From an uncultured virus (IMG/VR IMGVR_UViG_3300034110_001129) (lineage: Duplodnaviria > Heunggongvirae > Uroviricota > Caudoviricetes), in IMG/VR virus record IMGVR_UViG_3300034110_001129: DNA of 64,000 nucleotides, one strand, 5' to 3'. Position 1 is the first letter of the stretch. Each line of letters starts with the position of its first letter. The notes under the pieces were generated by a model that was not told where the DNA came from, made no database searches, and saw only the letters and a list, made by a program, of their open reading frames with translations. Position numbers and translations under genes: made by a program. Below, in pieces: positions 6,993-60,690 of the stretch.

Positions 6993-7709
6993 TTAAATTA
7001 AACTCATGTCCAACAATGTAATATGATCAGGTGTTACATATTTCTTCCAATTCAATAGTTTTAAATAGCTGCAATCTTTAAAGGCAGGAATGAAATCGGC
7101 CAGTTCAACTGCAGTAATCAGCTTTTTTCCTACCTTGAAGTAAACATCCGTAATTGTTTTTTTGTCTGGATCATAATCAACACGCGATAATCCAAAATAT
7201 AAATCAGAATCAAAAAATTTCCCAAAATAATCGGCTGAACTCGCATAAGATGTGATATACCATTCTGTCTCTGGGCCACGAACAGTTACCATCAAAGTTG
7301 GTTGTCCATACCAGTTGTAAGCAAAAATAGAAGGTTTTTTAGAAGGGACAAGCTTTAAGGTATCTAAATAATAATGACCTTTAAACGTCAATAGATATTC
7401 TTTGTTTTTCCTTTCTCTATAAGATGAACCATAATGTGTAGAACATTCTTTAAAATAGAGTTCAATAACTTCATTTCCCATTATTTTGTAAAAAGAATAA
7501 TTAAACTCAGTCAAGCTCGAATGGTTTTCGTTTATTTTATCAAATATGACTTCAAAACTACCATTTTTTTCATGATCGACATCACGTTGAACATACCCTA
7601 ATGCATATAGTTGATGAAAATCACTTTTAACAGTGATACACTTATTTGCAGATAGAGCCGCATCAATTTCTTCAATGGTGGATTCAATATTATCACTGAT
7701 TTCGGCCAT
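6993..7709 (-). CDS. C-terminal MxxI-tag family protein (paralog of 7711-8520)
   Basis: Ends LNWKKYVTPDHITLLDMSLI; shares GNEVIELYF/GNKVTELYF with its neighbour. Confidence 0.8.
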   Translation of the reverse strand: MAEISDNIESTIEEIDAALSANKCITVKSDFHQLYALGYVQRDVDHEKNGSFEVIFDKINENHSSLTEFNYSFYKIMGNEVIELYFKECSTHYGSSYRERKNKEYLLTFKGHYYLDTLKLVPSKKPSIFAYNWYGQPTLMVTVRGPETEWYITSYASSADYFGKFFDSDLYFGLSRVDYDPDKKTITDVYFKVGKKLITAVELADFIPAFKDCSYLKLLNWKKYVTPDHITLLDMSLI

Positions 7710-7710
7710 C

Positions 7711-8520
7711 TTAAATAACCTTCATTTCAAGAACCATAATTTGTTCAGGTGTTACAAACCGTTCCCAGTTCAATTGCTCAATAGGCTTCAAATCCATCAG
7801 TTCTGGCATAACATCTGCAATTTGTTTAACATCAATTTGACGATCACCCAAACGAAACACAACCGATTTAATACGTTTTTTATGAGTGTAATTGACAATT
7901 GCCACATCAAATACATTGTCAGATTCATACTCTTTATAGATAACATCATCTTGATATGCATGGTCGCCATCAAAAAACCAAATCACTCGATTTTTAGTAA
8001 CGGTACAAGTCACAGAGATATCGCCATTCTTTTTATAACCAATGATGGAAGGATTCGACATTCTTGGAAATTTAATATCTCGCATAGTCTTATACTCAAG
8101 AACATCAGGCATAGAATCTTTGAGATAGGTGCCTTTCAACACAAGACTGTAGAAATAATCATTATAGTCCTCTTTAAAGGTAAATGTTTCTCTCATGAAA
8201 TAAAGCTCTGTCACTTTGTTACCATCTACTTTTTGGAACGTTCTTTGATGGTCATGAACAACATGCTCACGCTCCATGACTGATTTTTCAATTACGTTAA
8301 CATAGTAAGTTGGAATAGCGTTTTCTGCTTCAGTTTTGCAAGTCTCTACAAAGCCAAGCTTATGTAAAAGATCAAAAGATTGTCCACACATCATGAAGCA
8401 CTCACGACCATTCAATGTCGCTTGAAGGGCAGAAAGCAAAACATCATCAGAAGGGATTTCTTTTTGTGCAATTTGATCAGCAATGAAATACATTTCACGA
8501 CCCAGTGTAATATGTGACAT
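7711..8520 (-). CDS. C-terminal MxxI-tag family protein
   Basis: Ends LNWERFVTPEQIMVLEMKVI; TGGTACAAT promoter upstream. Confidence 0.8.
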   Translation of the reverse strand: MSHITLGREMYFIADQIAQKEIPSDDVLLSALQATLNGRECFMMCGQSFDLLHKLGFVETCKTEAENAIPTYYVNVIEKSVMEREHVVHDHQRTFQKVDGNKVTELYFMRETFTFKEDYNDYFYSLVLKGTYLKDSMPDVLEYKTMRDIKFPRMSNPSIIGYKKNGDISVTCTVTKNRVIWFFDGDHAYQDDVIYKEYESDNVFDVAIVNYTHKKRIKSVVFRLGDRQIDVKQIADVMPELMDLKPIEQLNWERFVTPEQIMVLEMKVI

Positions 8521-8577
8521 AGTTGAAGCCTCATTTGGATTTGCGTTATTGTACCATAAAACTAAATTGCAATCAAC

Positions 8578-8606
8578 AAAAAACCCCTTGCAAGCAAGAG
8601 GTCTTT
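8578..8606 (-). terminator. Intrinsic terminator downstream of the tRNA-like RNA
   Basis: Minus strand ACCTCTTGC-TT-GCAAGGGGT-TTTT. Confidence 0.7.
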
Positions 8607-8617
8607 AAGAATTTTTG

Positions 8618-8750
8618 AGCCTGATCATGGAATCGAACCACCTACTTTTTCAGAGAGTTATCTAGAGCCTCTCAGGTCAAGCATTCGCAAACCAAGTTCG
8701 GTCGTCAGTAGAAGTTTCGAACCTTCAGTAACTTCCTAGCGAAATCAGGC
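8618..8750 (-). ncRNA. tRNA-like RNA (133 nt; non-canonical interior)
   Basis: 7-bp acceptor-like stem GCCTGAT/ATCAGGC, T-arm GTGG-TTCGATT-CCAT at the canonical 3' position, oversized interior; own promoter and terminator. Confidence 0.65.
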
Positions 8751-8793
8751 ATTAAGTTATCATTTCAAGGTTTTCCCCTGACTTGATAGGACT

Positions 8794-8822
8794 ATAATAT
8801 CAAAATATCAAAAAATATGCAA
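8794..8822 (-). promoter_or_regulatory. Sigma70-type promoter of the tRNA-like RNA
   Basis: TTGCAT-N17-TATTAT with TGn extended -10. Confidence 0.65.
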
Positions 8823-8880: not shown

Positions 8881-9252
8881 ATGAATGATAGATTTGAAAG
8901 AAATAAAAGAGCTGCACTTTTTATTGCCTACGATAACATTGTAGAAATTGTCAAAAATGAATTGGTTCAAGCGGGAAAAAATAGATTTATTCGTATAAAC
9001 CACAAAGGACAGTTTACTTTAATGGGCGTCGGTCAAGCAGATAAGTTGATTTTTACTTATGACCAAGAAGAATTTTTTGACACTCCGTTTGAAAATTTTA
9101 AAGCATATGCTTTTCAAGTTATATCCATTGAAAGCGATGTAACATATGATCAACGTGTCAACCAAGAATGGAAAGTCATGCTAGATAACGTATTAATGAA
9201 GTTTCAAAGCAATGCAGAATCAAAAATAATAGATGTTGTCATTACAGTTTGA
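8881..9252 (+). CDS. Hypothetical protein
   Basis: 123 aa, GGGAG RBS. Confidence 0.75.
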   Translation: MNDRFERNKRAALFIAYDNIVEIVKNELVQAGKNRFIRINHKGQFTLMGVGQADKLIFTYDQEEFFDTPFENFKAYAFQVISIESDVTYDQRVNQEWKVMLDNVLMKFQSNAESKIIDVVITV

Positions 9253-9940: not shown

Positions 9941-10597
9941 TCAAATTTTAACCATATCCATTAAAAAGAAATCATCATCGCTCAATGCAGAAAAGGCAAT
10001 GTTTTGATCTTTCATATAATTGTACAATACATGATAGCCAACTACTGAATTGTCACGAATAAGGCCAGCCCCATTAAAAACAAAGCTATTCAATGTCAAA
10101 AATGTTTTATTATATCGGGTAATACCATAATGAACAAAATCAGGCTTATGTCCAGTCAGTGTTTGAATATTGCTGGTAGACACTTTGAAGTGTTCCTTTG
10201 CTGAATAAGAACAACTGAAACCCATAATACCAAGGAAACTCCCATAAAAAAGACCTGCACCAACAGCAAAATCAATCAGACGAGAAAGCGAAGAATAGGT
10301 CATTAATTGACTAAAAGATCCAACTTCGTTGTATTTATGAATAAGGCCAAACGTCAAACAGGTAGCAAAAATAAACAATGGCAGGAGCAACATCAGTTCA
10401 TAACGAACAGTCACTCGTGATTTGAAGAGTTTATAGACCGATGACCCAGCAACAATAAAAGCCAGAAAAATAAAAGCTTGAGTGAGTGCAGAAATCTCAT
10501 TGAATAAAAAGGAGACATAAAAGACAGCAATGAGAACATTAAGCGAAAAGACTTGTGTTACAAAGTCATTTTTGAGAAAGTTGATTAGATTTTTCAA
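9941..10597 (-). CDS. Multi-TM membrane protein carrying the C-terminal MxxI tag
   Basis: About 4 hydrophobic segments; ends LSDDDFFLMDMVKI. Confidence 0.75.
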   Translation of the reverse strand: MKNLINFLKNDFVTQVFSLNVLIAVFYVSFLFNEISALTQAFIFLAFIVAGSSVYKLFKSRVTVRYELMLLLPLFIFATCLTFGLIHKYNEVGSFSQLMTYSSLSRLIDFAVGAGLFYGSFLGIMGFSCSYSAKEHFKVSTSNIQTLTGHKPDFVHYGITRYNKTFLTLNSFVFNGAGLIRDNSVVGYHVLYNYMKDQNIAFSALSDDDFFLMDMVKI

Positions 10598-13411: not shown

Positions 13412-14518
13412 ATGACATACGACTACAAAAAGCAAGTCAGTGTAGACAGTTTATTAGGCGTTCATGAAAAACATGAAATTACCTGTCCACGAATCAATCC
13501 ACTGCAGTTTGATGCAGACTGTGCTAGCAAAGCCTACAAAGTAGAGCTTGATTTCGATCCTCAACATTTGAAACTTGATTTAAAAGAGTTATTTACGGCC
13601 ATGAATGATTTGGATCAATGGTCTAAAGATATCCTGAATGTACTTAACCAATTACCAGAAATTAAACAATACATCATTTTAAGTGAAGCCTTTTTAACCG
13701 ATCATCAATATAAACAAAGACTGGAAGATCTTGAAACAGATCATAAACCAGAAATAACTGAATACGCTGAGATAATTAATGGATTGATAGAAGAATGGCA
13801 AGAGTATAGAAATGAATTCGCAGAAGCTCATACAGAAGAATTAAAACAACAAGCCTTGCTGGAAAATCAAGAAAAAGAATTATTGTTGCTGACCGTCAAT
13901 GGTGAAGATACTGATGACTGCTTAGGTTTGATTGAATTTTACAAAGATGAAGTCTATGAGCAAACAGATAAAAAACAAGATGCCCATAAAAAATTTGAAC
14001 GCTACGTTAAAGATGACTTTGAGAAAAAAGTAAAACAGTTTTCGCATTTTTTAGAAGATGTAAGAGACAGAAATGATGACTTGAGATGCGGTATTGGAGA
14101 AATCAAAACACAAATTGAAAAACATGCAAAAGAACTATTAAACATTTATCAACCTGATGAATATTTAGACATTAAATACGGAATCCAACCATCAGTTGCC
14201 AATATAGGTGTAATCTTTAATGACATCGAGACAGATGCTAGAAATGTAAACGTCAATTTTAAGAGCTTTGTTGTTGGATTGAGAGGTAAACGTTTTATTA
14301 CATCTGAGCAAGCTAAAACACTTGAAGATATGGCTATCGTCGTTGGTCCAAATTACAAAGAAGATAGAAAATCAGCCATTATGGACATGTTGAAAACAAA
14401 TGGTGTCATTACTGTAAGATATTATAATGATCAAAAAGAATACATAAACAACAAAGATAGCTATACTCAGGAACAATTAAATAAACCACTCTACAAACAA
14501 AAATTTAAACAGAGTTGA
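13412..14518 (+). CDS. Coiled-coil-rich hypothetical protein, tandem paralog 1
   Basis: Colinear with 14604-15713 (KKQVS.D.LLGVH..H.ITCPRIN; YQPDEYLD; TVRYYND). Confidence 0.85.
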   Translation: MTYDYKKQVSVDSLLGVHEKHEITCPRINPLQFDADCASKAYKVELDFDPQHLKLDLKELFTAMNDLDQWSKDILNVLNQLPEIKQYIILSEAFLTDHQYKQRLEDLETDHKPEITEYAEIINGLIEEWQEYRNEFAEAHTEELKQQALLENQEKELLLLTVNGEDTDDCLGLIEFYKDEVYEQTDKKQDAHKKFERYVKDDFEKKVKQFSHFLEDVRDRNDDLRCGIGEIKTQIEKHAKELLNIYQPDEYLDIKYGIQPSVANIGVIFNDIETDARNVNVNFKSFVVGLRGKRFITSEQAKTLEDMAIVVGPNYKEDRKSAIMDMLKTNGVITVRYYNDQKEYINNKDSYTQEQLNKPLYKQKFKQS

Positions 14519-14603
14519 GATTCAAAAAATAATAACATATCTTAAAAAATAATATTTCTTATGGTATACTGTAATTATATCAATTAGTCATATAAGGTTA
14601 GAC

Positions 14604-15713
14604 ATGAGTCACGATCATAAAAAGCAAGTCAGCATAGATAGATTATTAGGTGTCCATGATGTACATGATATCACCTGCCCTAGAATAAATGTATTACAAT
14701 TTAGCAGTAGGAATGCCACAAGAATTTTTGAAGATGACTTAGAGCAAGATCCAGAAGCATTGAAGGTCAATCTTACTGAATTGTTTAAAGCCATGTATGA
14801 CCTTGATCAATGGGCAAATGATATTGTAAAACTAGTTAATACATTGCCAGAACATGTGTACAATGGTGTATTAGGTGAAGTGTTCAACTATGAAGAAGAC
14901 TACGATAAATTAATAGATACCATCAACACTGACTACAAATCTGAATTAAGAGAATATGCCACTGAAATTAATGGTCTTATTGAACAATGGCAAGAATACA
15001 GAAATGATTTGTCAGAAGCCAAAGAAGAAGAACGCAAACAACAAAAATTATTAACTGCTCAGGAAAAAGAATTATTGTTTTTGACCATAAAAGGACAAAA
15101 CACTGATGAATGCGTAGGATTAATTGAATTCTACAAAGGTGAAATACAAGAACAACAAGAGAAAAAAGTGGATGCTTTACATAATTTTGATAGATACATT
15201 AAAGATGACTTCCAAAAAATAACAAGAGAGTTTTCAAGCTTCCTAGAAACCGTTAGAGAAAGAAATGATGATGTTAGAGGCAGAATTGGTGACATAAAGT
15301 ATGAAATATACAAACAAGCAAAATCGTTATTAAATCTTTACCAACCTGATGAGTATTTAGATCGTACAGTTGGCATAAAAGACAATGAAGCTAACTTAGG
15401 TGTATTATTCAATGATACAGTAGTTGAAGACAGAAATATATTTGTCAATTTCAATGCGTTTGTGATTGCGGCTCGTTCTAAACAATTTATAACATTTGAT
15501 CAAATGAATGCTATCTTAGATTTAAAAGATAGTTTCAAAGTTTCATTTGAAGACGAACGAAAAGAATTATTATTAGGGATGCTGAAAGATAATGGATTTA
15601 CAACTGTCAGGTATTATAATGATCATTTAGAATACTCCAAGAATAAAGATGGGTATACCACACAAGAACTTAACAAACCAGTGAATAAACAAAAAATAAA
15701 GATAGGTAACTAA
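14604..15713 (+). CDS. Coiled-coil-rich hypothetical protein, tandem paralog 2
   Basis: 369 aa, full-length similarity to 13412-14518. Confidence 0.85.
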   Translation: MSHDHKKQVSIDRLLGVHDVHDITCPRINVLQFSSRNATRIFEDDLEQDPEALKVNLTELFKAMYDLDQWANDIVKLVNTLPEHVYNGVLGEVFNYEEDYDKLIDTINTDYKSELREYATEINGLIEQWQEYRNDLSEAKEEERKQQKLLTAQEKELLFLTIKGQNTDECVGLIEFYKGEIQEQQEKKVDALHNFDRYIKDDFQKITREFSSFLETVRERNDDVRGRIGDIKYEIYKQAKSLLNLYQPDEYLDRTVGIKDNEANLGVLFNDTVVEDRNIFVNFNAFVIAARSKQFITFDQMNAILDLKDSFKVSFEDERKELLLGMLKDNGFTTVRYYNDHLEYSKNKDGYTTQELNKPVNKQKIKIGN

Positions 15714-15714
15714 G

Positions 15715-16323
15715 ATGTATTTAAACTGGTCAATGCCTATCTATTATTCATCAAAGTTAATCGGTTCTTATGGTGAAAAAGATGGTGACTATTCATCTAT
15801 TTATAATAACTTCGATTATCTAAGCTTGTATGAGTCGCAGTTGTTTCCAAGCTACATGGACAAACCAGCCGTTTATTTTCAGGAAAAGTATGAACAATTA
15901 ATCAAGTTTGACTGTTTATGGTTGCTAGGCGAACAAGTGTTAGTCAGCAAGCGATTAAAAACATTACTGGAAAGTTTAACATTAAGTACCTTGGAGTTTA
16001 TTGAACCTTCGATCATACAAACAAAAGATCAGCAGATACTTAAAGACTATTATATCATTAACCTATTAGACAAAGTATTCGCCATCGACAGCAATAACTC
16101 GATTCCAGTCTACAGCGAGGATAATCATTTTTTGTATTATAGTAAGAGACAATTTAAACAGTCTACTGAAAAAGGGTTGTTAGCCAGAGAAGTAATGTCT
16201 AACGAAATTATTATTACACATGATCTGGCAGATGACTTATTAAAAGCCAATATGAATGTATGTAAATGTTTTGGATTCTATTCTGTCAATCCATTAACTG
16301 AGTATAAAACAAAAAGAAAATAA
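15715..16323 (+). CDS. Possible Imm11/DUF1629-like immunity protein
   Basis: LVSKRLK..LE and YYIINLLDKVFAID pattern resembles Imm11-type proteins; starts 1 nt after the paralog-2 stop. Confidence 0.45.
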   Translation: MYLNWSMPIYYSSKLIGSYGEKDGDYSSIYNNFDYLSLYESQLFPSYMDKPAVYFQEKYEQLIKFDCLWLLGEQVLVSKRLKTLLESLTLSTLEFIEPSIIQTKDQQILKDYYIINLLDKVFAIDSNNSIPVYSEDNHFLYYSKRQFKQSTEKGLLAREVMSNEIIITHDLADDLLKANMNVCKCFGFYSVNPLTEYKTKRK

Positions 16324-38788: not shown

Positions 38789-38853
38789 GTTTAATTACTC
38801 CTAGATTGATATAGATTTAACTATATTAAATCTCAAAAAATATTTTACAAGAC

Positions 38854-43911: not shown

Positions 43912-43919
43912 GATAATCC

Positions 43920-45059: not shown

Positions 45060-45066
45060 TACGACC

Positions 45067-49452: not shown

Positions 49453-50340
49453 TTAAATAGTAGCCATATCAAAAAGATGAAGAAATGATTTCCAATCTTG
49501 ATGTGGATCAATCCCAAAGTCAGTAATCACTTTATTCATTCCATTCACCATGTAATCATCTGAAAGAATGTGGGCCATTGTAATTTCAAAAGATTTATCA
49601 CAAAATTCATCAAGTGTCTTAATATCTGAAATATCAAATTCGTCTGTATTTTCAGTATCATCTAGATTTTTCTTAGTGAAAAAATACTTGAGATTATTCT
49701 CATCAGAATTAAAGACAAAGAACAAGCTAGCATAATAGCCAGAAGCATAAAAATAAGCATCATTGTCTGATAATGAATAATACAGCTCAATAAATTTTAA
49801 ATATGAATAATGATTAAGAGCCTTATTGAGACTCATATTTCTACGATAAAGCGAACATTCATCAAAGTAAAATTTATCATTAAATTTTTTAATGATATAT
49901 TCATCAACGCATGGGTTTTGGCTTTTACAACGAATATAATAAGTATAGCAATCATTGTTAAAGCGGGTAATAGTAAATGAATGGTCAGTGGATTTTTTTA
50001 TCATAGGGATAAGTGTATCAAGCTCACGTTCATCCAGTTGAAACAAAATATTTACTGATAAATTATCAATAAGTGAATAAGTGTTCGAATTTCCACGAAG
50101 TTTCATATTCAAATCATAAGAATAACTAAACAAAAATTCATCATTTCTAAAAATAGAAACATCAAAAAAGCTAACATTAACATCATTAATATTATTGCTT
50201 TTGGCAGAATTAAAAACAACCTTAGCGGTAATAGAGTTTTTGCTTTCAATAAAATAATCTGTAACACCAACACAATATCCCGTCACAGAGTAACGATCAC
50301 CATTGTACCCGCCAGCGAATTTTCTTTTGGTTTCACTCAT
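49453..50340 (-). CDS. C-terminal MxxI-tag family protein
   Basis: Ends VITDFGIDPHQDWKSFLHLFDMATI. Confidence 0.8.
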   Translation of the reverse strand: MSETKRKFAGGYNGDRYSVTGYCVGVTDYFIESKNSITAKVVFNSAKSNNINDVNVSFFDVSIFRNDEFLFSYSYDLNMKLRGNSNTYSLIDNLSVNILFQLDERELDTLIPMIKKSTDHSFTITRFNNDCYTYYIRCKSQNPCVDEYIIKKFNDKFYFDECSLYRRNMSLNKALNHYSYLKFIELYYSLSDNDAYFYASGYYASLFFVFNSDENNLKYFFTKKNLDDTENTDEFDISDIKTLDEFCDKSFEITMAHILSDDYMVNGMNKVITDFGIDPHQDWKSFLHLFDMATI

Positions 50341-50351: not shown

Positions 50352-51323
50352 CTAAACTGTAACCATGTCTACTAATGTCAAACAATCATGAGACGAAACG
50401 TTTTCAATATCAAGCCCATATTGCTCAGCAAAGGCGATAAAGTGTTCGGATGGATAAGTAATAAGACTTTCTCCAAAGTAACGATTAAATGAACCAAAAA
50501 AAGCTTTATCCATGTCTACAATATTTGTAATGACAGTGACAGAACAAAGTTGCGTATTGTATCGTGTGTGCAAAACTACTTGTGCATTCAAATCCGCTTG
50601 AATAATCCCAAGAACACCTTTTAATTCATAAACAAAATAAATCATGTCTTGATTCAGTGATGATAATACCACAATTCTTTGGTGTTGTGTAAATTTGGTG
50701 AACCTAGCCAGACGAATACCTAACTCTGATTTAGACTCTACTTGCTTTTCAAATGCAATATCAGCATCCGCAAAAAAATAGATCGTATACATTTTTGAAG
50801 TCACTGATGAACTGACTTCATTATATTTATCCGCCTCAAGATAGTTAACAGTAACATGAAGATAACGATTCAATTTTGATGCATAAGTAAATGACATATT
50901 AAACTTAAAAGATACCGCATAGTCAAATCTTGATTTAATCGACAAAACTTGTTTAAGACTAGCATTCACTTTAAATAAAGGGTAATCAACAAAGTGCATA
51001 AATAGTTTTTCAAAATTATAATCATTTTCAAGAATTAACTTTCGAGTATCACTCATGGTTCTATAATCAAATTCAACTTTAAAGCTAGCGAGAATAGAAT
51101 GACCAACACAAACATGAATATTTGCTATATTGTTGACTGTTTTAAGAGCAGCAAAAATAAAATAATAATTTTGTCCGATATCAACTTTAAACAAAGGCGT
51201 CTTACTATTATTGAAAGCAATATTCATGGTTTCACTTGAAAAAACAGGAATCCAAAAATTAACGGAATTAAACCTTTTTTGGTTCACAGGTGATACTTTC
51301 TCTTGCAAATATTGGTAAGCCAT
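50352..51323 (-). CDS. C-terminal MxxV-tag family protein
   Basis: Ends PSEHFIAFAEQYGLDIENVSSHDCLTLVDMVTV. Confidence 0.8.
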   Translation of the reverse strand: MAYQYLQEKVSPVNQKRFNSVNFWIPVFSSETMNIAFNNSKTPLFKVDIGQNYYFIFAALKTVNNIANIHVCVGHSILASFKVEFDYRTMSDTRKLILENDYNFEKLFMHFVDYPLFKVNASLKQVLSIKSRFDYAVSFKFNMSFTYASKLNRYLHVTVNYLEADKYNEVSSSVTSKMYTIYFFADADIAFEKQVESKSELGIRLARFTKFTQHQRIVVLSSLNQDMIYFVYELKGVLGIIQADLNAQVVLHTRYNTQLCSVTVITNIVDMDKAFFGSFNRYFGESLITYPSEHFIAFAEQYGLDIENVSSHDCLTLVDMVTV

Positions 51324-52201
51324 TAGTAATCCGCCATATTAAGTACTTTGAAGTCATCCAGTGTAAGTTGACTTAAATTTAAATTGTAAGCTTTAACATA
51401 TTTCTCCAATTTAGGGGTTGGAGTCTTAATGATGATATTATTCACGTATTCAGTTATTTTTTTATAAATATTGTCATCACCTTCAATAGTTTCGTTAGTG
51501 TTTGCTGCAGCATCTCTAATCTGTAACACACCCGATTCATATTGCATCCAAATATACGCTTTTACTTTTCGGTCAAAAATATTAAATTTGAAAGCTTCAC
51601 TATCAATCGATTCATAAAAGAAAAACCAAGACAATGAAAATTTTACACCATCAAAAATCTCATGAAATTTACCAGATTTTTTATCTTTTGTCTCATAAAC
51701 AATGTTTTTCACATCATCATACAGGTAGGATTTATGTAAAAAAGAATCACCAGTTTTTACATCAAGTGTAAAATGTGTAATCCCATCAGTGACCTTTCTT
51801 CCAAATACAAGATTTTCTGAATGTTGTTTAAAATACGACAAGGCATTCTTGCACTGTTCTTCACTGACAAAGTTTAAATAACAAGTTTTCAATGTATTTT
51901 GAATTCTTTCGTTAATCGCCAAGGGAGCAATCCCCATTGCTAAACCCATTGAAGAACTATGATTAATGGAATATTTAAATGTAAATCCTGATTCTTTAAA
52001 TACAGTGGTGTATACATAGCGTTCACTATTAAATACAGGTTCTTTTTTACCAAACTTATTGGTTACATACAAAGAAGAATGGTGTTGAATATCAATAGTT
52101 ATTGTGCGGTCTGAAAGATCAGAACACTTATAACTATTATTGCCCATATCCTCAATATTGAAATTAAAGTTGGCATTAAGAAGTTTTATCTGTTCTGTCA
52201 T
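51323..52201 (-). CDS. C-terminal MxxY-tag family protein
   Basis: Ends PTPKLEKYVKAYNLNLSQLTLDDFKVLNMADY; ATG after GGAGA; promoter TTGCTT-N17-TATAAT at 52237-52265. Confidence 0.8.
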   Translation of the reverse strand: MTEQIKLLNANFNFNIEDMGNNSYKCSDLSDRTITIDIQHHSSLYVTNKFGKKEPVFNSERYVYTTVFKESGFTFKYSINHSSSMGLAMGIAPLAINERIQNTLKTCYLNFVSEEQCKNALSYFKQHSENLVFGRKVTDGITHFTLDVKTGDSFLHKSYLYDDVKNIVYETKDKKSGKFHEIFDGVKFSLSWFFFYESIDSEAFKFNIFDRKVKAYIWMQYESGVLQIRDAAANTNETIEGDDNIYKKITEYVNNIIIKTPTPKLEKYVKAYNLNLSQLTLDDFKVLNMADY

Positions 52202-52288
52202 GAATATCTCCAAATCTGCAATAACATAATTGCCCAATTATAGCAAAAAAGGACTAAAAAAGCAATCAATTTAAAATAAATGAACTCT

Positions 52289-53122
52289 TTAACAAGTCGC
52301 CATCTTAAAGGTTTGAAGATCTTCAATGGATAGTGTTGCCATATCAAACCCAAAATCACCCACATAATGAATGAGTTCATCAGTAGGATGCAAAGCAATA
52401 TGCCGAACAATAAAAGCATTCAAAGTATTACGAATATACTCAGGTGAACCAACAGCATTAATATGCTCTCTACTGGCTAGTGAAACATACAGAGAATGCT
52501 CAAAATAGGTTACAATCATGTTTTTTGAATAGCGAGAATATTTATCAAGAATCACAAGACTCTTGTCGTCAACTGACAAATAAAATTGAAAAAATGCTTT
52601 TGAATACGAAGTTGCTTCAAACAAATCTTTGAATTTTTCTGGTTTTACATCACTTCTTACATACAGCATATCCATAGCGGGATCATAGATAAAACTATTT
52701 GAAGGAACCGCTACACATCCATCCGTAATATAAGTCATTCCAACATGAAATGAAAACAAATCACCTTCTTTACTCATTTCAAAAATGGCTGAAATATTTT
52801 TGGCTTCAACGTCAAACCACTTGCGAGAATAAGACTCATCGACATAATGAAGGAAACAATTTTTCAAATCGTGCTCTATTTTTTCCAAAACAGTGAATGA
52901 CGGCCTATTAGTAAATTGAACATATCGCGTTTGATAAGTAAACTCAAATTCAGAATCATTAAAGACGATGACATACGTGTATTGATCTAATTTTTTTTCA
53001 ATCAATACAGTTCTGTCTGGAATGCTTGAACATAGAAAAAGATTGTCATTTAACTGTTCAATGACAAAATCTACATTGATATTGACTTTCAAAGATGGTA
53101 CAGTCATGGCTAAGTATCCCAT
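52289..53122 (-). CDS. C-terminal MxxC-tag family protein
   Basis: Ends PTDELIHYVGDFGFDMATLSIEDLQTFKMATC; N-terminal DRT.xI motif shared with neighbours. Confidence 0.8.
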   Translation of the reverse strand: MGYLAMTVPSLKVNINVDFVIEQLNDNLFLCSSIPDRTVLIEKKLDQYTYVIVFNDSEFEFTYQTRYVQFTNRPSFTVLEKIEHDLKNCFLHYVDESYSRKWFDVEAKNISAIFEMSKEGDLFSFHVGMTYITDGCVAVPSNSFIYDPAMDMLYVRSDVKPEKFKDLFEATSYSKAFFQFYLSVDDKSLVILDKYSRYSKNMIVTYFEHSLYVSLASREHINAVGSPEYIRNTLNAFIVRHIALHPTDELIHYVGDFGFDMATLSIEDLQTFKMATC

Positions 53123-53166: not shown

Positions 53167-54027
53167 TCAATAATCGGCAATCAAAATCATTTGTAACTGA
53201 TCATTTGTCAATGTTTCTAGCTCAATATCATATTCTGCAAGATATCCCTTCATAGCATTAGAAGGTTCTGTTTTAATAACGTCTCTGACAATATCCAAAA
53301 CAATCGAACCAATGACATTCAAATCACCAGCATGATGAGTTATATTCCCAAAAGTATTATCATAGACATACAAATCATTACCAGAATAACAAAGAACAGT
53401 CCCCAATAAGCCATTATCAATAACACATTTAAAATTATTATTCGTTAACGATTCATAGATTTTAATTTTACAGGTGGTTAATTTAGCAGGATGGAAAACA
53501 TGATTAAAAATATTGTTGAGTTTTTCTTTTTTTAGATATACTTGTTTTTTAACACAATCAAAAATAAAAATCTGTTCATAAGTATAAGGAACATAGTCAT
53601 TTTCATTATATCGAGACATTACAACCGTAAAATAATAAACATTCGTTTCAACAGTGATAGTTTCACCGCTTTTTATTGATTTAATATATCGATCCTTACC
53701 CAAGCATTCTTTAATTGTGTTCACCATGCTTTCATCAACATAATTAAAAATACAATTAACAATGGTTCGCTCAATAACGGATTTAATGGAGTCTAGTTGA
53801 CGATTGTTTTCTTTGAAAATATTATATTCATAAACTCCCAAGGTCATGGTGTAGGAATAGCAATTTCGAGTATCTTTAAAGCGAGCATCAAATTGAATAC
53901 TGGTTTCATCGACAGCCTGAATAATCATGGTTCTGTCATCCATTTCACATTCGAAATAGAAATCGTCCACATTTTTCAAGGTAAAGGTTGGAGTGTAGTC
54001 TTTAAAACTAATTTCATTTTGGCTCAT
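53167..54027 (-). CDS. C-terminal tag family protein (variant, Ile at -4)
   Basis: Ends PSNAMKGYLAEYDIELETLTNDQLQMILIADY; paralog of the 51323 and 52289 genes. Confidence 0.75.
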   Translation of the reverse strand: MSQNEISFKDYTPTFTLKNVDDFYFECEMDDRTMIIQAVDETSIQFDARFKDTRNCYSYTMTLGVYEYNIFKENNRQLDSIKSVIERTIVNCIFNYVDESMVNTIKECLGKDRYIKSIKSGETITVETNVYYFTVVMSRYNENDYVPYTYEQIFIFDCVKKQVYLKKEKLNNIFNHVFHPAKLTTCKIKIYESLTNNNFKCVIDNGLLGTVLCYSGNDLYVYDNTFGNITHHAGDLNVIGSIVLDIVRDVIKTEPSNAMKGYLAEYDIELETLTNDQLQMILIADY

Positions 54028-54101
54028 AACAAAAAACCCTCAATATTTATAGCTGCCATCTTAGCAAAATATGAGAGTTTTATCAAGTAAATAACTTTTT
54101 T

Positions 54102-54932
54102 TTAAAAAATCATTTTATCAATCGCATGAACAATATTTGAAATATTAGATTTATAAAAACCTGATGAGTTGATATTGTTAACTTCAATGATTTTAGGGCC
54201 ATCGTCTGTAATCGCAATATCCAACACAAAAGCACGGTCAGGTTGCCAGATCTCCAACATCTTGTAAGCATACTCAACCGCTACTGGGTCAAGCACATCT
54301 GAAGTTGTAACCAAGTCACCGATTTTATAAAGACTACCCGATGCAATAAGGCCATCAACCACAAACAAACGGTATTCTGCCAAGATTTTCTTAAACGGTG
54401 AAACAATCACACTGGTATCACCGTGAAGGCCAAATCGGTCATTAGACGACGCCACTTGACCCAACCAGTAAATAAGGTTGTCAGCTTCAAACAATTGACC
54501 AGAAAAAGATTTAGTATCTTCTGATGGTCGAGCAAAGACTTTGTGTCGGCCAGCCGTAATTTTAGGAATAATATTGCTAACAGTGTCTTCAATGGCTTCA
54601 CCATTTAAAAGATTATCTTTACCCCAACCTACACACCATTTAGAAAATTCAAAATTCTCATTGATAAAAGAACCCGGTACCCAACCTTTTTCTTTTGCTG
54701 TCAATGCCAATGAGTAAGATCCCATAGTAACCATTTGTTTGTCATTTTCAATTTGAAGGCGAGGAATATCGTCTTCACTGAACTGATTGATATCGACATC
54801 AATATCCACAATGATATTTGAAAACGGAATCGTTTTAACCAACGAATGTTGATAGCCTTCATTACGCAATACAGCCATTAAAGCATTAAGCCCTTCATCT
54901 GTTTTTAAATTACCTTGAACTACCCAAAACAT
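54102..54932 (-). CDS. ATP-grasp domain protein (R2K/DUF4343-like)
   Basis: FARPSEDTKSFSG, EYRLFVVDG, FVLDIA, KIIEVNNINSSGFY. Confidence 0.8.
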   Translation of the reverse strand: MFWVVQGNLKTDEGLNALMAVLRNEGYQHSLVKTIPFSNIIVDIDVDINQFSEDDIPRLQIENDKQMVTMGSYSLALTAKEKGWVPGSFINENFEFSKWCVGWGKDNLLNGEAIEDTVSNIIPKITAGRHKVFARPSEDTKSFSGQLFEADNLIYWLGQVASSNDRFGLHGDTSVIVSPFKKILAEYRLFVVDGLIASGSLYKIGDLVTTSDVLDPVAVEYAYKMLEIWQPDRAFVLDIAITDDGPKIIEVNNINSSGFYKSNISNIVHAIDKMIF

Positions 54933-54943
54933 AATTAATTCTC

Positions 54944-55687
54944 CTAAATTTCAACCATCTCTTTAATCGTTATTGCCATCTCAATCCGATCAAGACCATC
55001 CATAGCTTCCTCAAACGTTGAACTATCATCGCCATTACAACGACCTATCCACTGTTGCAAAACAGACATTTCGTCAGGAATCGTATCAATGAACTCTCGA
55101 TGAGTAATCTTGCGATCCGTAAACCAAGGAAACTCAACACGATAATGAATATTGTCTTTAAACCCATTGATAGAGAAATGAATAATAGGACTAAGACTAC
55201 CTTTCTTTTTATGATAAATCAAGTGCGTATGAATATTCATAGCGTAACCCAAATATTCATGCGTCTCTTTATCGAAACAAATACGCAGGTTCATCGACAA
55301 TACAGTTCGATATTTACCACCACGATGTTTGATATAGCTATCAATCTGATTGATATACTGATCGTAACCCTTTTGAATATGTTCATAGACCTTATCTTCA
55401 AATCGTAATTTCAAACCATTTTCAATATAGCTCTTGACCAGATCAGGTTTTTTATACAGGTCGAAAGACAAAATCATTCGTTCAATGATTGAAAATTGCA
55501 CATGATAAGACGTGTTCAAATCAAAGTTATGAAAATACAGTGTAGCTTTACTATTAGGCGTTCGTGTACAAAAAGAACAACCATGATCAGCATCCCTCAT
55601 GAACTGAGAAGGGGGTTCAATAAAAGAAAATTGAGAGTTATTTCTAATAACATCCATAAATTCATTGTATGAATAATCAAATCGCAT
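54944..55687 (-). CDS. C-terminal MxxI-tag family protein
   Basis: Ends LDRIEMAITIKEMVEI. Confidence 0.75.
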   Translation of the reverse strand: MRFDYSYNEFMDVIRNNSQFSFIEPPSQFMRDADHGCSFCTRTPNSKATLYFHNFDLNTSYHVQFSIIERMILSFDLYKKPDLVKSYIENGLKLRFEDKVYEHIQKGYDQYINQIDSYIKHRGGKYRTVLSMNLRICFDKETHEYLGYAMNIHTHLIYHKKKGSLSPIIHFSINGFKDNIHYRVEFPWFTDRKITHREFIDTIPDEMSVLQQWIGRCNGDDSSTFEEAMDGLDRIEMAITIKEMVEI

Positions 55688-55899: not shown

Positions 55900-56091
55900 T
55901 TATTTTTGTATTTTAGTCGCTTCAACCTGAGCGGATGTTGCTACTTGAGCTTGCTGAGCATTATGGGCTTCCATTGCGACTTTCATGTGTTCGGCTGAAC
56001 GTTCGAATGTTCTGTCACCACCATCTTCTGCAAATGCAACTGATGACCCCAAAGCTAAAACTGCCATTACTGCGATTATTGTTTTTTTCAT
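55900..56091 (-). CDS. Small secreted protein resembling the Pseudomonas PtrA N-terminal domain family
   Basis: Signal peptide ending AFA then EDGGDRTFERS; 63 aa. Confidence 0.6.
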   Translation of the reverse strand: MKKTIIAVMAVLALGSSVAFAEDGGDRTFERSAEHMKVAMEAHNAQQAQVATSAQVEATKIQK

Positions 56092-56369: not shown

Positions 56370-57767
56370 TTAAACAGTCTTAATAAGCTCTGTTGCACGT
56401 TCTCTCACCAATGTAGCGGGTGCTTTACCCTTGGTTTTTGCCATAATTTTACCAATAATGAATTGAAGAACCTTTTCTTGACCCGATTTATATTGTTCTA
56501 CTTGTTGAGAGAACGCAGTAAAGGTTTCAAGCACAATAATATTCAAATCATCATCAGACATTAACTCAGGCAAGCAGTCTTTGATTTCTTTATCAGTAGT
56601 TGCCCAACGAATAACCGTTTCTTTAACCTCTTTGGCTTCCAATTTGCTACCAACCAAGAACTTAATCGTATCCACATCAATAGATCGGCGTTCACCTTCA
56701 ATGCGAGCACAAGCTTCTGGAAGCCAGAAGGCCAACATACGAATGAAGCGTTCCGACTGCATGGATTCATCATCCAACATCGCTAACCACACATCACGGT
56801 ATTCACTTTCCATCAAGGCAGCAACACTATCAATCTTGACTGAAAACTTCTCAAAAAACTCTACAAATTGCTGACGCACTGTAAAGTAATAGATATGTTT
56901 ATCGTCTCGAATAGATTTGAGCATATCTTGATCAAGTACAATGGCTGGAATATCAGGGTCTGGCATGTAACGATATTCATGAACCGTTTCTTTCTTACGC
57001 ATAGACTGAGTAGTTGTGGTCGATTCATCAAACAATCGAGTTTCCATATCAATCAATTTGCCAGCATCCAGCAATTCTGTTTGACGTTCAATTTCATAGT
57101 CCAAAGCAGCTTGCAAGAAACCAAATGACGAAATGTTTTTAATTTCAACACGAGTGCCTAAAACATCTGTTTTTGACAGAGAAATGCTGGCGTCAACACG
57201 AAATGAGCCTTCTTCCAGTTTGCCATCACAAATCCCTAAATACTTAACCATTTCACATACCGTTTGAGCATAAAGCTTGGCTTCGCGTGGGCTATGCATA
57301 CAAGGTGTCGATACAATTTCTAGCAATGGAGATGACCCACGAGACAAATCAATCGCTGTATATTCGGCAAAACGATCATGCAAGCTTTTGGCTGCGTCAC
57401 ATTCCAAGTGAGCATGTTCAATTTGTACATTGATCTTACGACCATCAAGTTCAATAGGAACAATCCCACCAATCATAATCGGTCTATGTTGTTGAGTAAT
57501 TTGATATCCTAACGCCAAGTCTGGATAAAAATAGTGCTTACGTTCAAAATAGCTGACAGGTGGGATTTCAGCGTCTACAGCAACAGCAAATTTCAAAGCC
57601 ATTTCAACAGGCTTTTCTGCTAACACTGGCAGCATCCCCGGAATACCAGCATCAAAATACGAGAACTCTTGTGCATCAAAATCACAAGCACTTCGGCTAA
57701 ATAGTTTGGAATCCGTTTTCAATGCAACGTGAATTTCCAAACCGATAGTTACTTTATATTCGCTCAT
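56370..57767 (-). CDS. gatB: Asp-tRNA(Asn)/Glu-tRNA(Gln) amidotransferase subunit B
   Basis: IGLEIHVAL, YFYPDL..GYQITQ, HLECDAAKS, PLLEIVS, EGSFRVD, RVEIKN, YRYMPDPD, C-terminal Yqey-like region. Confidence 0.96.
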   Translation of the reverse strand: MSEYKVTIGLEIHVALKTDSKLFSRSACDFDAQEFSYFDAGIPGMLPVLAEKPVEMALKFAVAVDAEIPPVSYFERKHYFYPDLALGYQITQQHRPIMIGGIVPIELDGRKINVQIEHAHLECDAAKSLHDRFAEYTAIDLSRGSSPLLEIVSTPCMHSPREAKLYAQTVCEMVKYLGICDGKLEEGSFRVDASISLSKTDVLGTRVEIKNISSFGFLQAALDYEIERQTELLDAGKLIDMETRLFDESTTTTQSMRKKETVHEYRYMPDPDIPAIVLDQDMLKSIRDDKHIYYFTVRQQFVEFFEKFSVKIDSVAALMESEYRDVWLAMLDDESMQSERFIRMLAFWLPEACARIEGERRSIDVDTIKFLVGSKLEAKEVKETVIRWATTDKEIKDCLPELMSDDDLNIIVLETFTAFSQQVEQYKSGQEKVLQFIIGKIMAKTKGKAPATLVRERATELIKTV

Positions 57768-57769
57768 GA

Positions 57770-59200
57770 TTATAGTCCCTTTCCATAAATATCAATTTCA
57801 AGTTGTGATACAGCATCAATTAACTCATAGTCTTTAAATTTCTTACCCACAAACTGCATACCAATGTTCAACCCATCTTGTGTTTTCTTCCACGGCACTG
57901 AAAGAGCTGGAACCCCCGCAAGACTAAATGGTACCGTCATGTAATCAGAGTAGTATACTTGGGCAGGGGTCATTTTATCAATTTCATCCCACTTTGGTGC
58001 AACTGTTGGACTGACAGGTAAAACAATGGTATCCACATCATCCAGAACCGATTGAATGCTTATTGTCAAAGCTTTACGCATGTTCCAAGATTTTTCATAC
58101 ATCACAGTGAAATTTTCAGCACTTAGAATAAATGACCCCAACATAATACGGCGTTGAACTTCGTCACCAAAAAACTTACTGCGATACGATGAAATAGTGT
58201 CCGCAAATGAATCACCTAATGGTTCTTTTGAAAGCTTTTCACCAAAGTAAACCCCTTGGTAGCGAGCAAGATTGGAGCTGGCCTCAGAACAAGCAATAAT
58301 GTAATAGATTTGAGCAGCTTGATCCATCAAATCGATATCCACTGGCACTAACACTGCCCCTGTTAATTCAATCTCACGCAAAGTCTCTGCATAAGCCTTA
58401 GCCACTTCTGGTTGAATGTCTTTACTGTCCAAAATATTTTTCAAATACCCAACACGAGTAATTTTCTTAGCTGATGGTGCATAATGCCCCAGCCCTACGG
58501 AAGTCATGTCTTGTTTATCTTTAAAAGAAAGCTGACTAGCGATAACGGTTTGCAGATCTTCCATTGTTCGAGTAAAGAATCCTGCTTGATCAAGTGACGA
58601 AGCATACGGAATCATACCAAAGCGTGAGAAGGCTCCATAAGATGGTTTGTAACCAACTACACCACAAAAACTGGCTGGAAGTCTCACAGAACCACCTGTG
58701 TCGGAACCCAAGCTAAAATCAACAATACCTGCCGCTACTGCCGCTGCAGATCCACCCGATGAACCACCGGCTGAACGATCAGGATGCCCCGGAATAGAAG
58801 TTTTACCCAGATAAGAAGTTTTAGTAAACGAACCCATAGCGAATTCATCCATTGCCAACTTACCAGCCATAAAACCACCTGCGTCTTTGACTGATTTCCA
58901 TACAGTGCTGTCATAAGGAGCCACAAAGCCATCAAGAATTTTGGAACCAGCAGTGGTTCGCATACCTTTAACACAAAAGAGATCTTTAACACCAACGGCT
59001 GCACCAGCCAAAGGTTTAGTTGGATCTTTTACCATGCTGTCACGAACGGACGCTTCTTGTTCCATTGAGGCAATGGTTTCATCCACATGCCAAAATGCAC
59101 CAGACGTATCTGATTTAATTTGTTTTTTGAGTTCTGCAGTGCGTTTAACCCAATAACCTTTAGTTTCAAGGCATTCTTTTGTTTTTGATTTAATACTCAT
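57770..59200 (-). CDS. gatA: Amidotransferase subunit A (amidase signature)
   Basis: GVKDLF, DEFAMGS, GGSSGGSAAAVA, GSDTGGSVRLPA, SSNLARY, EVQRRIMLG. Confidence 0.96.
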   Translation of the reverse strand: MSIKSKTKECLETKGYWVKRTAELKKQIKSDTSGAFWHVDETIASMEQEASVRDSMVKDPTKPLAGAAVGVKDLFCVKGMRTTAGSKILDGFVAPYDSTVWKSVKDAGGFMAGKLAMDEFAMGSFTKTSYLGKTSIPGHPDRSAGGSSGGSAAAVAAGIVDFSLGSDTGGSVRLPASFCGVVGYKPSYGAFSRFGMIPYASSLDQAGFFTRTMEDLQTVIASQLSFKDKQDMTSVGLGHYAPSAKKITRVGYLKNILDSKDIQPEVAKAYAETLREIELTGAVLVPVDIDLMDQAAQIYYIIACSEASSNLARYQGVYFGEKLSKEPLGDSFADTISSYRSKFFGDEVQRRIMLGSFILSAENFTVMYEKSWNMRKALTISIQSVLDDVDTIVLPVSPTVAPKWDEIDKMTPAQVYYSDYMTVPFSLAGVPALSVPWKKTQDGLNIGMQFVGKKFKDYELIDAVSQLEIDIYGKGL

Positions 59201-59215
59201 TATAATATCCTCTAA

Positions 59216-59497
59216 TTATTTGCTGATTACTTTGGGTGCTAAGAACACACCATCTTGAATGTTAACGGATTTGCTTTCTTTGGTTTTATCAAAGCAATAT
59301 TCACCATTAACCACATCATTAGCAAGCTGAGTAGGATTATTATGATTTTCAGGAATGGACGCAACATTAATCTGGTCGATAGAGTGTAGCATATCAACAA
59401 CACCATTAATGTCGTCAATCATGCTAGATTTTTTTGAATCATCAATTTTAAGGCAACTAAGAGCCTCAAGTTTTTCAATATCTATATGTTTTGTCAT
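59216..59497 (-). CDS. gatC: Amidotransferase subunit C
   Basis: 93 aa, first gene of the operon; IEKLEALSCLKI ... DGVFLAPKVI. Confidence 0.85.
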   Translation of the reverse strand: MTKHIDIEKLEALSCLKIDDSKKSSMIDDINGVVDMLHSIDQINVASIPENHNNPTQLANDVVNGEYCFDKTKESKSVNIQDGVFLAPKVISK

Positions 59498-59523
59498 GGT
59501 ACATTCCTTTATTTGAAGGATGT

Positions 59524-59552
59524 ATAATAGAGGATATCAACAATTAAGTCAA
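59524..59552 (-). promoter_or_regulatory. Promoter of gatCAB
   Basis: TTGACT-N17-TATTAT. Confidence 0.6.
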
Positions 59553-59577
59553 GTTTTTGTATTGTCTGTATTTTTGT

Positions 59578-59769
59578 AAAAAAAAAGAGGCCGAAGCCTC
59601 TGTAGCAAGAAAAATTGCTTTGTTTTCAAAACAACCAAGCCATTATTATTTTAAACCATCAATAAGCTTCGCTGAAAGGAATTTTTCAAACTGCCGGACA
59701 TAATAGACAAAAGAACTCTACGAATACGACATCAAATTAACTATAACATGGTATGATTTTTTTTGTCAA
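59578..59769 (-). ncRNA. Candidate ~150-nt small RNA
   Basis: TTGACA-N18-TATAGT (TGn extended) and UUCG terminator AGAGGCTTCGGCCTCTTTTTT enclose no ORF with an RBS. Confidence 0.45.
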
Positions 59770-59928
59770 CACTTAATATTGAAACATTTCAACAAGTAGT
59801 AAACGTTGCTTTTTCAAACGAAAAATTTCACTTTTAAAATAAAAGAAAGGCAAGACAATCACAGCATAATAAATAGCACTTATTGACTTAAAGAAAGTAT
59901 AACCTAAGTAAATGAATAATGTTTTCAT

Positions 59929-60690
59929 TTAGTAAGCCGTCATTGCATAAAGTTGAAGTCTTTGTTTGAACTCAGTAGAACTGTAGTCGTAAACTGTATC
60001 CATATAGTATTCTGGAAACAGTTCAAACAAGGGTGAGTTATCCTTGGCAATAGCAAGATTAATCAATAAAAATTCATCATCAAGTATAATATTATCAGTT
60101 ACAACAGATTCAGAAATCATTTTAGGGAAAGTATCATCACCATATTTAGATCGGATTGTAATAAAAGATTTTTTTATAATACTTATAATATTAAAATTAC
60201 AATCAAATACAAGAGTTGTTTCAATAAAATTGATCTTGTTATTTTTATGATTTATGGAATCAAGAATAATATCAAAATTGCAAACAATATTTTTAATTTT
60301 TTTATTTTCGTAATTAAGTGACCACCGCTCACCCATTAATACAGAGTTAGCATAAACGTCAGAACAAAAACGTTGAAAAGTTTTTACATCTTTCAACGCC
60401 ATTCTTGAACTTATCTCCATTGTTCCGGGTTTATTGACGTTTTTAGAAATAGACAACACACCTTCGTTATATTTATCATCTTTAAAGAATACGCCATTAA
60501 AAAGGCTGTACTGAACATAGATATTATCAAAAGAATGATTAAAACTATCCTGAACGCAAACCTTTTTCATTAAGTCCACATACTCCATAGCAATAGACTC
60601 AAGTCCAAGACAATAACCACGAAATTTCAAAAAAGGATAGACTAAAAAATTAGCAAGTCTATAAAGATAAATTTTAACGTAATCGTTCAT
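59929..60690 (-). CDS. C-terminal MxxY-tag family protein
   Basis: Ends STEFKQRLQLYAMTAY; start set at MNDYVK because promoter TTGATT-N17-TATAAT lies at 60727-60755. Confidence 0.75.
   Translation of the reverse strand: MNDYVKIYLYRLANFLVYPFLKFRGYCLGLESIAMEYVDLMKKVCVQDSFNHSFDNIYVQYSLFNGVFFKDDKYNEGVLSISKNVNKPGTMEISSRMALKDVKTFQRFCSDVYANSVLMGERWSLNYENKKIKNIVCNFDIILDSINHKNNKINFIETTLVFDCNFNIISIIKKSFITIRSKYGDDTFPKMISESVVTDNIILDDEFLLINLAIAKDNSPLFELFPEYYMDTVYDYSSTEFKQRLQLYAMTAY

Follow-up and report, generated by a model that had tools for sequence, protein, structure and literature searches.

Peptides at a free C-terminus that dock or sort the proteins bearing them are already known from several systems. 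PTS1 (peroxisomal targeting signal 1) is a C-terminal sorting peptide read by one receptor, and the poxvirus ankyrin/PRANC proteins, encoded in tandem arrays, combine fast-diverging bodies with a constant C-terminal piece. The same layout of tandem arrays, fast-diverging bodies and a constant C-terminal piece has been described for the Theileria Tpr proteins (PMC10730637). In phages T4 and RB69, several otherwise unrelated proteins are connected to one hub, the sliding clamp, by short peptides of hydrophobic and acidic character located at the free C-terminus or close to it; the last 11 residues of the RB69 DNA polymerase (gp43) have been co-crystallised with the clamp, and the C-terminal clamp epitopes of gp43, gp55 and gp33 are described as interchangeable (PMC2988020). 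The Dot/Icm systems of Legionella and Coxiella are described as serving hundreds of fast-evolving, mostly lineage-specific and C-terminally marked proteins through one coupling complex (PMC9302130). In encapsulins, whose shells are reported to have the phage HK97 capsid fold, a short C-terminal cargo-loading peptide addresses folded proteins to one shell. Here we analyse a C-terminal tail shared by many orphan proteins of an uncultured virus record (IMG/VR IMGVR_UViG_3300034110_001129), of which a stretch of 64,000 nucleotides, referred to below as the window, was studied over its full length. The tail was noticed in the sequence itself, and this original prediction listed 23 proteins ending in a hydrophobic residue, two variable positions, methionine, two further variable positions and a hydrophobic last residue.

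Open reading frames (ORFs) of at least 50 amino acids (aa) were called in the window by a greedy non-overlap procedure, giving 83 ORFs; the gene starts are our own calls, several of the TTG starts being doubtful, which leaves the C-termini unaffected. Translation of the minus strand reproduced each of the 23 listed C-termini exactly. Methionine occupies the fourth position from the end (Met(-4), the last residue being -1) in 23 of the 83 ORFs, far above the 2.5% background of non-initiator methionine (binomial p = 8.2e-18) and in line with the excess claimed for 22 of roughly 75 genes. These 23 ORFs comprise 22 of the listed endings plus a 51-aa remnant ORF absent from the list, and the remaining listed protein, encoded at 53167, is a genuine variant ending MILIADY with isoleucine at -4. 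Over the same 83 ORFs, each of the other positions from -1 to -15 holds 0 to 3 methionines. The pattern [ILVFMT]-x-x-M-x-x-[ILVFYCMW]-COOH is fitted by all 23 Met(-4) ORFs, whereas only 78 of 18,440 internal positions match it. With the same ORF caller, the full pattern was found in one of 41 ORFs from a 25-kb piece of RB69 (the DNA polymerase) and in none of 78 ORFs from a 40.8-kb piece of the jumbo phage RsoM2USA. The tail is real, far beyond chance, and its register is fixed to the C-terminus.

Among the 23 listed proteins the last residue is always hydrophobic (I13 Y6 V2 F1 C1) and residue -7 is mostly aliphatic (L9 V9 I2 T2 M1), both as originally described. Position -9 is hydrophobic in 22 of them, Asp is found at -11 in 13 and Ser or Thr at -13 in 10, which agrees with the acidic helix start ([S/T]xD[D/E]) said to precede the ending in many cases. 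This position-wise composition identifies the tail unit as a capped helix of about 12 residues, with an S/T-x-D-D/E N-cap, hydrophobic residues at -9, -7 and -1, and Met at -4. Along the helix, positions -9, -7, -6, -4, -3 and -1 are hydrophobic and polar residues recur every third position; the tails are acidic, with 0 to 4 Asp or Glu in the last 13 residues. Carriers make up about a quarter of the genes in the window and all lack a known family or domain: the tail is absent from all 17 proteins that score above the Pfam gathering threshold and present in 23 of the 66 others (Fisher p = 0.0023), so the remark that recognizable enzymes lack this ending holds for the window as a whole. No described family was known to match the tail, and none has emerged, since neither a Pfam scan of the C-terminal 45 residues of 23 tails (best E = 0.028, one member only) nor a comparison of the tail profile with PDB sequences (best E = 0.19, a spurious match to casein kinase) rose above noise. 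Every tagged gene is on the minus strand, most of them stand in tandem arrays, and their products measure 202 to 405 aa (median 278; see the table). On the plus strand, a 123-aa orphan (8881) has a tail-like end, ...KIIDVVITV, with Val at -4; it may be a degenerate member or a chance resemblance.

The tail is maintained over considerable evolutionary distance. A syntenic relative, L001 (a 20.9-kb stretch of a 1.86-Mb contig), encodes proteins 72-99% identical to those of the window, except one at 49%, and 13 of its 23 ORFs have Met(-4). It also carries a gene absent from the window and the full-length form of the 51-aa remnant, which derives from a deletion of about 650 bp relative to a 268-aa L001 gene (L001:1635-2441, of which L001 1753-2402 is missing) and still has its tail in frame. 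When window proteins are paired with their L001 orthologues, conservation of the last 40 residues equals or exceeds that of the bodies. The median ratio of nonsynonymous to synonymous divergence (dN/dS, Nei-Gojobori) for this comparison is 0.163 for 12 tagged bodies and 0.06 for 7 untagged genes (Mann-Whitney p = 0.005), and the pooled last 13 codons give a proportion of synonymous differences (pS) of 0.38 and of nonsynonymous differences (pN) of 0.054, with a dN/dS of 0.106. The DNA of the tail thus changes freely while the peptide does not, indicative of a tail that is held at the protein level. The tagged genes are real and fast-evolving, faster than the untagged genes, and their tail is under purifying selection as a peptide.

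More distant homologues give the same picture. An exhaustive profile search for the family comprising 51323, 52289 and 53167 recovered only 19 proteins among 1.84 billion representatives, and Met(-4) is kept in all full-length true members except the 53167 type. For two families, 40 of 46 fetched proteins retain it, the six exceptions being three N-terminal fragments, one spurious match, the Ile variant and one protein with a single extra residue. It is also present in all 10 inspected orthologues of other groups, its conservation extends down to about 20% identity (E = 5e-7), and full-length homologues of the bodies all keep the tail. Attempts to find the tail independently of its bodies met with mixed success. 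A hidden Markov model (HMM) of the last 40 residues was almost powerless, with leave-one-out scores of only -1.8 to 12.5 bits, and database-wide profile searches with the tail alone are therefore uninformative. The 45-aa C-terminal profile of the 51323 family did find two more tails in the window, those of 45067 and 50352, both in register. In a word-seeded search a 45-aa tail profile returned 29 database matches, which are only orthologues of window proteins; none has a precomputed Pfam domain.

We tentatively favour the view that the tail is a common docking handle read by one invariant partner. An invariant Met at a fixed distance from the C-terminus, on bodies that have diverged, argues for a common external reader: packing within the core of each protein could exchange Met for Leu or Ile with compensating changes, which a shared external partner would presumably not allow. 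In such a system the tagged genes would be a lineage-specific, tandemly expanded and fast-evolving multigene family, or a few such families, each protein consisting of variable beta-sheet/helix modules followed by a C-terminal helix-turn-helix of about 40 residues. The handle would be formed by the last helix and the free C-terminus, which lies three residues beyond the Met. We infer that a partner encoded elsewhere in the element or by the host reads this handle, perhaps through a pocket for the free carboxylate, and our leading guess at its purpose is the sorting or loading of many cargo proteins into a particle or compartment, or out of the cell. A more far-reaching version, which we consider possible but unlikely, is that the tail is the address label of an undescribed protein-sorting system, and that the megabase-scale, phage-like bacterial replicons using it form an undescribed class. 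A single receptor recognizing hydrophobic-x-x-M-x-x-hydrophobic-COOH would then send hundreds of fast-evolving proteins, a fifth to a quarter of all those encoded by the element, into a particle, a compartment or another cell. A precedent by analogy, to be taken as a lead only, may be seen in the RB69 DNA polymerase, which ends ...SLFDMFDF (NC_004928) and agrees with the window pattern throughout (L at -7, D at -5, M at -4, F at -1); its tail is a proven free-end docking peptide.

Several observations weigh against an external reader. There is no obvious receptor candidate in the window, which is only part of the element, and in the homologue P0046 the tail is followed by one more residue. Were the signal portable, some known folds should bear it, yet the tail was seen on no recognizable domain, either among the Pfam-positive proteins of the window or among the 29 database matches. 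The six hydrophobic positions imply a helix buried on most sides, which is expected in a receptor groove and in a protein core alike. Lastly, the two carriers for which structures were predicted share an architecture, and their tail helix, modelled with fair confidence, would fit an integral structural helix equally well.

The last two points bear on the nature of the bodies. These fall into about 17 groups without similarity detectable at the sequence level. BLAST among the tagged proteins linked only six small sets, and iterative HMM searches with the bodies, minus their last 45 residues, gave 19 sets that merged into 17 groups. All 136 pairwise hhalign comparisons remained below 3% probability, and the profile-profile comparison of the two deepest alignments (A3 versus A5) reached 0.3%, with the tail not matched either. 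The description of the bodies as apparently unrelated is therefore upheld for their sequences and not for their predicted structures, where the two groups modelled share one architecture. AlphaFold2 (AF2) models were obtained for 2 of the approximately 17 groups, represented by 51323 (predicted local distance difference test, pLDDT, 88; predicted template modelling score, pTM, 0.79) and 29577 (pLDDT 82, pTM 0.75), which have no sequence similarity to each other. Both are predicted to consist of beta-meander sheets with helices, built as beta-sheet/helix modules, a frataxin-like sandwich and then two helices, and both end in the succession alpha, beta5, long alpha, short helix, tail helix. Block means of confidence for the tail helix are 81 in 51323, and 90 then 69 in 29577. 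The module preceding the tail matches the same PDB chains over the same chain ranges in the two models, namely Med17C (7emf_Q, scores of 9.5 for 29577 and 5.8 for 51323; 4h62_Q, 8.5 and 4.8), frataxin (4hs5_A, 7.1 and 5.0; 2fql_A, 5.7 and 5.3), the TriTu immunity protein (7zhm_D, 6.2 and 4.2) and CagD (3cwx_A, 5.0 and 5.7), most of these scores falling in the range that the comparison tool rates as a "common arrangement". Foldseek found no match to the 51323 model in the PDB at E <= 0.001 (TM score <= 0.21) and none to the 29577 model in BFVD, while the ESM Atlas yielded a poor model of 25063 with no usable match. Two copies of 51323 modelled as a complex scored 0.00, which is evidence neither way.

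Given scores mostly in the common-arrangement range and two groups folded, a single hyper-divergent superfamily embracing all carriers is no more than plausible from these models, and we consider one such multigene superfamily at least as likely as unrelated bodies with a portable tag. The architecture proposed in the original prediction, a variable body with a constant terminal helix, is accordingly supported only in part: the tail is better conserved than the bodies, but there is no evidence of a tag moving between folds. Taken to its conclusion, this would make the tail the last structural helix capping a sandwich-plus-helices domain, with no external reader and with the Met as folding nucleus and least replaceable residue, an alternative that is possible if somewhat doubtful. 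It would account for the common ending and look-alikes of the two models, the tandem, same-strand genes of similar size, the absence of the tail from known domains, and a helix that is hydrophobic on most sides. The in-register recognition of the 45067 and 50352 tails by the 51323-family profile also fits, as does a turn of Gly or Asn followed by a hydrophobic residue that recurs about 20 residues before the end in most groups. On the other hand, 2 of some 17 groups is a small basis, profile-profile comparison detects nothing even in the tail, a buried Met would normally be exchangeable with Leu or Ile whereas here it is nearly invariant, and the chain stops exactly three residues past the Met in nearly all members. 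These last features are those that the docking-handle reading would explain.

The remaining alternatives depend on what kind of element carries the tail. Upstream of most genes in the window stands AGGAG, and almost every gene has a TGnTATAAT box of its own at a distance of 20-35 nt from its start, indicative of bacterial-type expression. In three tagged genes (25063, 35695 and 52289) the -10 box is present and the Shine-Dalgarno (SD) sequence absent, which suggests very short leaders. Genes recognizable with Pfam and PHROGs are gatCAB, adk, alkB, lemA-htpX, an HD/kinase fusion, an HD nucleotidase, a SleB-type wall hydrolase, a VWA protein, a MerR protein, an Imm11 protein, a GHKL ATPase (phrog_6077, E = 1e-90) and an R2K ATP-grasp (phrog_7313, E = 4e-61). 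The gene content resembles that of jumbo phages. Homologues of the GHKL ATPase are found in many Vibrio, Pectobacterium and Escherichia phages, and those of the R2K ATP-grasp mainly in jumbo phages of 340-360 kb infecting Ralstonia, Erwinia, Serratia, Yersinia and Xanthomonas. The gatC-gatA-gatB operon is complete and stands in a phage-like context; its GatB is divergent (255 bits against S. aureus GatB, and 36% identity to the best phage-collection record). No capsid or encapsulin family was detected among the 83 ORFs with Pfam and PHROGs, apart from a weak sub-threshold Portal_T4 match in a 100-aa ORF, and the window contains no tRNA or Rfam family. Searches for relatives were mostly negative: megablast of 14 kb of the window and tblastn of one tagged protein against phages, an exact 41-mer and two protein queries against IMG/VR, and DNA or close protein comparison with INPHARED gave no match, and tblastn of the GHKL ATPase against plasmids (PLSDB) gave matches only at <=40% identity. 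By contrast, near-identical DNA was present in 24 runs from 13 studies, whose samples came from lakes, freshwater, plants, dairy, food, soil and wastewater, with no RNA run listed among those that contain it, and proteins identical or close to those of the window are located on contigs of 773,483, 1,843,594 and 1,859,102 bp. The element is not an ordinary phage or plasmid, and we conclude only that it is a megabase-scale, AT-rich, phage-like replicon with bacterial expression signals, which may represent a virus, some other kind of element or a portion of an odd cell.

Contigs of 0.77-1.86 Mb and the bacterial-type gatCAB, adk, alkB and htpX genes could indicate that the replicon is itself a cellular bacterium or belongs to one, in which a large set of effectors would be marked for secretion by the tail, in the manner of type IVB Dot/Icm or type I C-terminal signals. 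The acidic tails and the number and pace of evolution of the carriers would suit this idea, as the C-terminal signals of Dot/Icm substrates, which occupy the last 20-35 residues, are described as rich in small polar, hydrophobic or negatively charged residues (PMC9302130). We nevertheless regard it as improbable. Neither GatB nor one tagged protein has a relative in the one-genome-per-species GTDB set, only 17 of the 83 ORFs pass the Pfam gathering score, a virus-like proportion, and among known proteins it is PHROG families and jumbo-phage genes that give the strongest matches. Moreover, no secretion-system gene is present in the window, Dot/Icm signals have no strict motif, and effector sets usually include recognizable domains whereas the carriers have none.

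Slightly less probable again is that the tails are sliding-clamp epitopes of the T4/RB69 type, tethering their carriers to the element's own clamp on DNA. Beyond the agreement of the RB69 polymerase end LFDMFDF with the pattern, the LFDMATI tail in the window shares its LFDM, and the described epitopes are likewise C-terminal, hydrophobic and acidic, and interchangeable (PMC2988020). However, the RB69 gp55 epitope SLDFLYEDDN lacks Met and is not at the very end of the protein, so Met(-4) does not define this class. The carriers are orphans rather than replication or transcription proteins, none has a nucleic-acid enzyme domain, and about a quarter of the genes in the window would have to compete for one clamp, for which no gene was found there in the Pfam and PHROGs scans. 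The T4 epitope is also described as lying on a flexible linker (PMC2988020), while both AF2 models place the tail directly after structured helices.

We think it highly improbable that the tail marks its carriers for processing or turnover, as a C-terminal degron or as the substrate of a C-terminus-modifying enzyme such as the R2K-clade ATP-grasp ligase encoded between tagged genes. Hydrophobic C-termini are typical protease tags, the register is fixed to the free end, and the ligase is 95% conserved with L001. Yet this ligase family occurs in many jumbo phages, and in the one piece checked around such a ligase gene, that of RsoM2USA, the tail is missing; it would be costly to equip a quarter of the genes in the window with a degron, and a 12-residue helix with a conserved N-cap exceeds what a degron needs. 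We rejected a DNA-level signal (SD or promoter) at the Met codon or tail, as the SD usually follows the stop codon and synonymous sites in the tail change freely, a membrane-targeting amphipathic helix, as the tails are acidic and not basic, and a PDZ class I ligand or CaaX-like box, whose positions do not fit.

Some neighbouring genes merit separate mention. The R2K ATP-grasp ligase itself ends ...IDKMIF, one residue off the tail register. The GHKL/sacsin-like ATPase is 97.6% identical to its L001 counterpart, second only to GatC at 98.9%, and ends ...DPDPFDDIPF; phage homologues align only to residues 1-378, so this acidic tail is lineage-specific, and we take it to resemble the C-terminal tip of bacterial single-stranded DNA-binding protein (SSB). 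Two familyless paralogues (368 and 369 aa, 54% identical), encoded on the strand opposite to the arrays and followed directly by the Imm11 immunity-family protein, look like a toxin-immunity cassette. Two 120-aa paralogues outside the tail set (34% identical) have very hydrophobic C-termini (...FFMITLFS and ...IFKLLFS) and may be small membrane proteins. A protein with a PtrA (PA2808)-type N-terminal domain and a CopM/DUF305 protein, Pseudomonas-type copper-response genes, may hint at the host.

Table. Positions in the window of the tagged genes, including the variant and the remnant, and of the neighbouring genes discussed; lengths are in aa, identities refer to L001 orthologues.
Coordinates	Strand	Feature	Length	C-terminus	Remarks
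6993..7709	-	tagged orphan	238	LLDMSLI	paralogue of 7711
7711..8520	-	tagged orphan	269	VLEMKVI	
8881..9252	+	orphan with tail-like end			
9941..10597	-	tagged orphan	218	LMDMVKI	TTG start doubtful
13412..16323	+	paralogue pair and Imm11 protein			
25063..26271	-	tagged orphan	402	VIEMTMF	distant paralogue of 35695
27965..28714	-	tagged orphan	249	VQKMVDI	VQxM subfamily
28735..29556	-	tagged orphan	273	VQKMIQI	VQxM subfamily
29577..30323	-	tagged orphan	248	VQRMNDI	folded; predicted tail helix 233-247
30822..31580	-	tagged orphan	252	VQQMEAI	VQxM subfamily
33827..34528	-	tagged orphan	233	LIGMCLV	
35695..36912	-	tagged orphan	405	VHQMAII	
38426..39216	-	hydrophobic paralogue pair			
40160..40996	-	tagged orphan	278	LLKMIAI	TTG start doubtful
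42481..42966	+	CopM/DUF305 protein			
42988..43923	-	tagged orphan		LFKMAIY	first gene of 42988-55687 array; 89% identical
43920..45086	-	tagged orphan		VLKMYDY	
45067..46197	-	tagged orphan		TIDMYTY	tail matched by 51323-family 45-aa profile (E 4e-4, 106 proteins)
46213..47274	-	tagged orphan		LYEMMDI	
47399..48007	-	tagged orphan	202	ISEMITI	second copy adjoins L001 counterpart
48114..49379	-	GHKL/sacsin-like ATPase			
49453..50340	-	tagged orphan		LFDMATI	49% identical overall, body 51%, yet 8/10 last residues kept
50352..51323	-	tagged orphan		LVDMVTV	tail matched by 51323-family profile (E 7e-4)
51323..52237	-	tagged orphan		VLNMADY	true start probably ATG at 52201; folded; predicted tail helix 281-291
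52289..53122	-	tagged orphan		TFKMATC	paralogue of 51323
53167..54027	-	variant-tail orphan		MILIADY	paralogue of 51323
54102..54932	-	R2K-clade ATP-grasp ligase			within tagged array
54944..55687	-	tagged orphan	247	IKEMVEI	
55900..56091	-	PtrA-type domain protein			
56370..59497	-	gatC-gatA-gatB operon			
59773..59928	-	tagged remnant	51	LVEMFQY	
59929..60816	-	tagged orphan		LYAMTAY	body 69% identical, last 40 residues 39/40

A literature search turned up no account of either the tail or megabase phage-like elements. Should a single partner recognize it, the tail would provide a single handle on hundreds of otherwise unapproachable orphans of a widespread, unclassified giant element, allow proteome-wide prediction of its cargo or effector set, and serve as bait for the receptor as well as a portable label with which proteins could be loaded. 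It would, moreover, be the first C-terminal signal with a strict, fixed register to be described in a phage-like element. A tail that is no more than the closing helix of a single huge family would still be useful, in defining the probable dominant gene family of these elements and in providing a marker by which to recognize them.

Compared with the systems outlined at the beginning, the tail has a motif different from that of PTS1. Encapsulin cargo peptides, as far as described, likewise have other motifs and serve few cargo types per shell, and no shell gene occurs in the window. The C-terminal pieces of PRANC and Tpr proteins are domains of at least 50 residues in eukaryotic parasites and viruses, whereas the window encodes a 12-residue helix in a bacterial-type replicon. 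Import in nucleus-forming jumbo phages is described as proceeding without a terminal signal (PMC12908238), and the tail therefore does not belong to that system as described. Dot/Icm signals are portrayed as compositional, with no fixed residue or register and on effectors that often have known domains (PMC9302130); the window instead has a strict Met(-4) register and no secretion genes, in an element that looks viral and not cellular. The clamp epitopes of the T4 family, in the accounts available, are confined to three or four carriers, all of them replication or transcription proteins, sit on a flexible linker and do not conserve Met. In the window there are dozens of orphan carriers with an invariant Met, and the tail is predicted to end a structured helical module. 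C-terminal docking and sorting peptides as such being known, what is new here is the strict Met(-4) register, the many orphan carriers, and their occurrence in an unclassified, megabase phage-like replicon.

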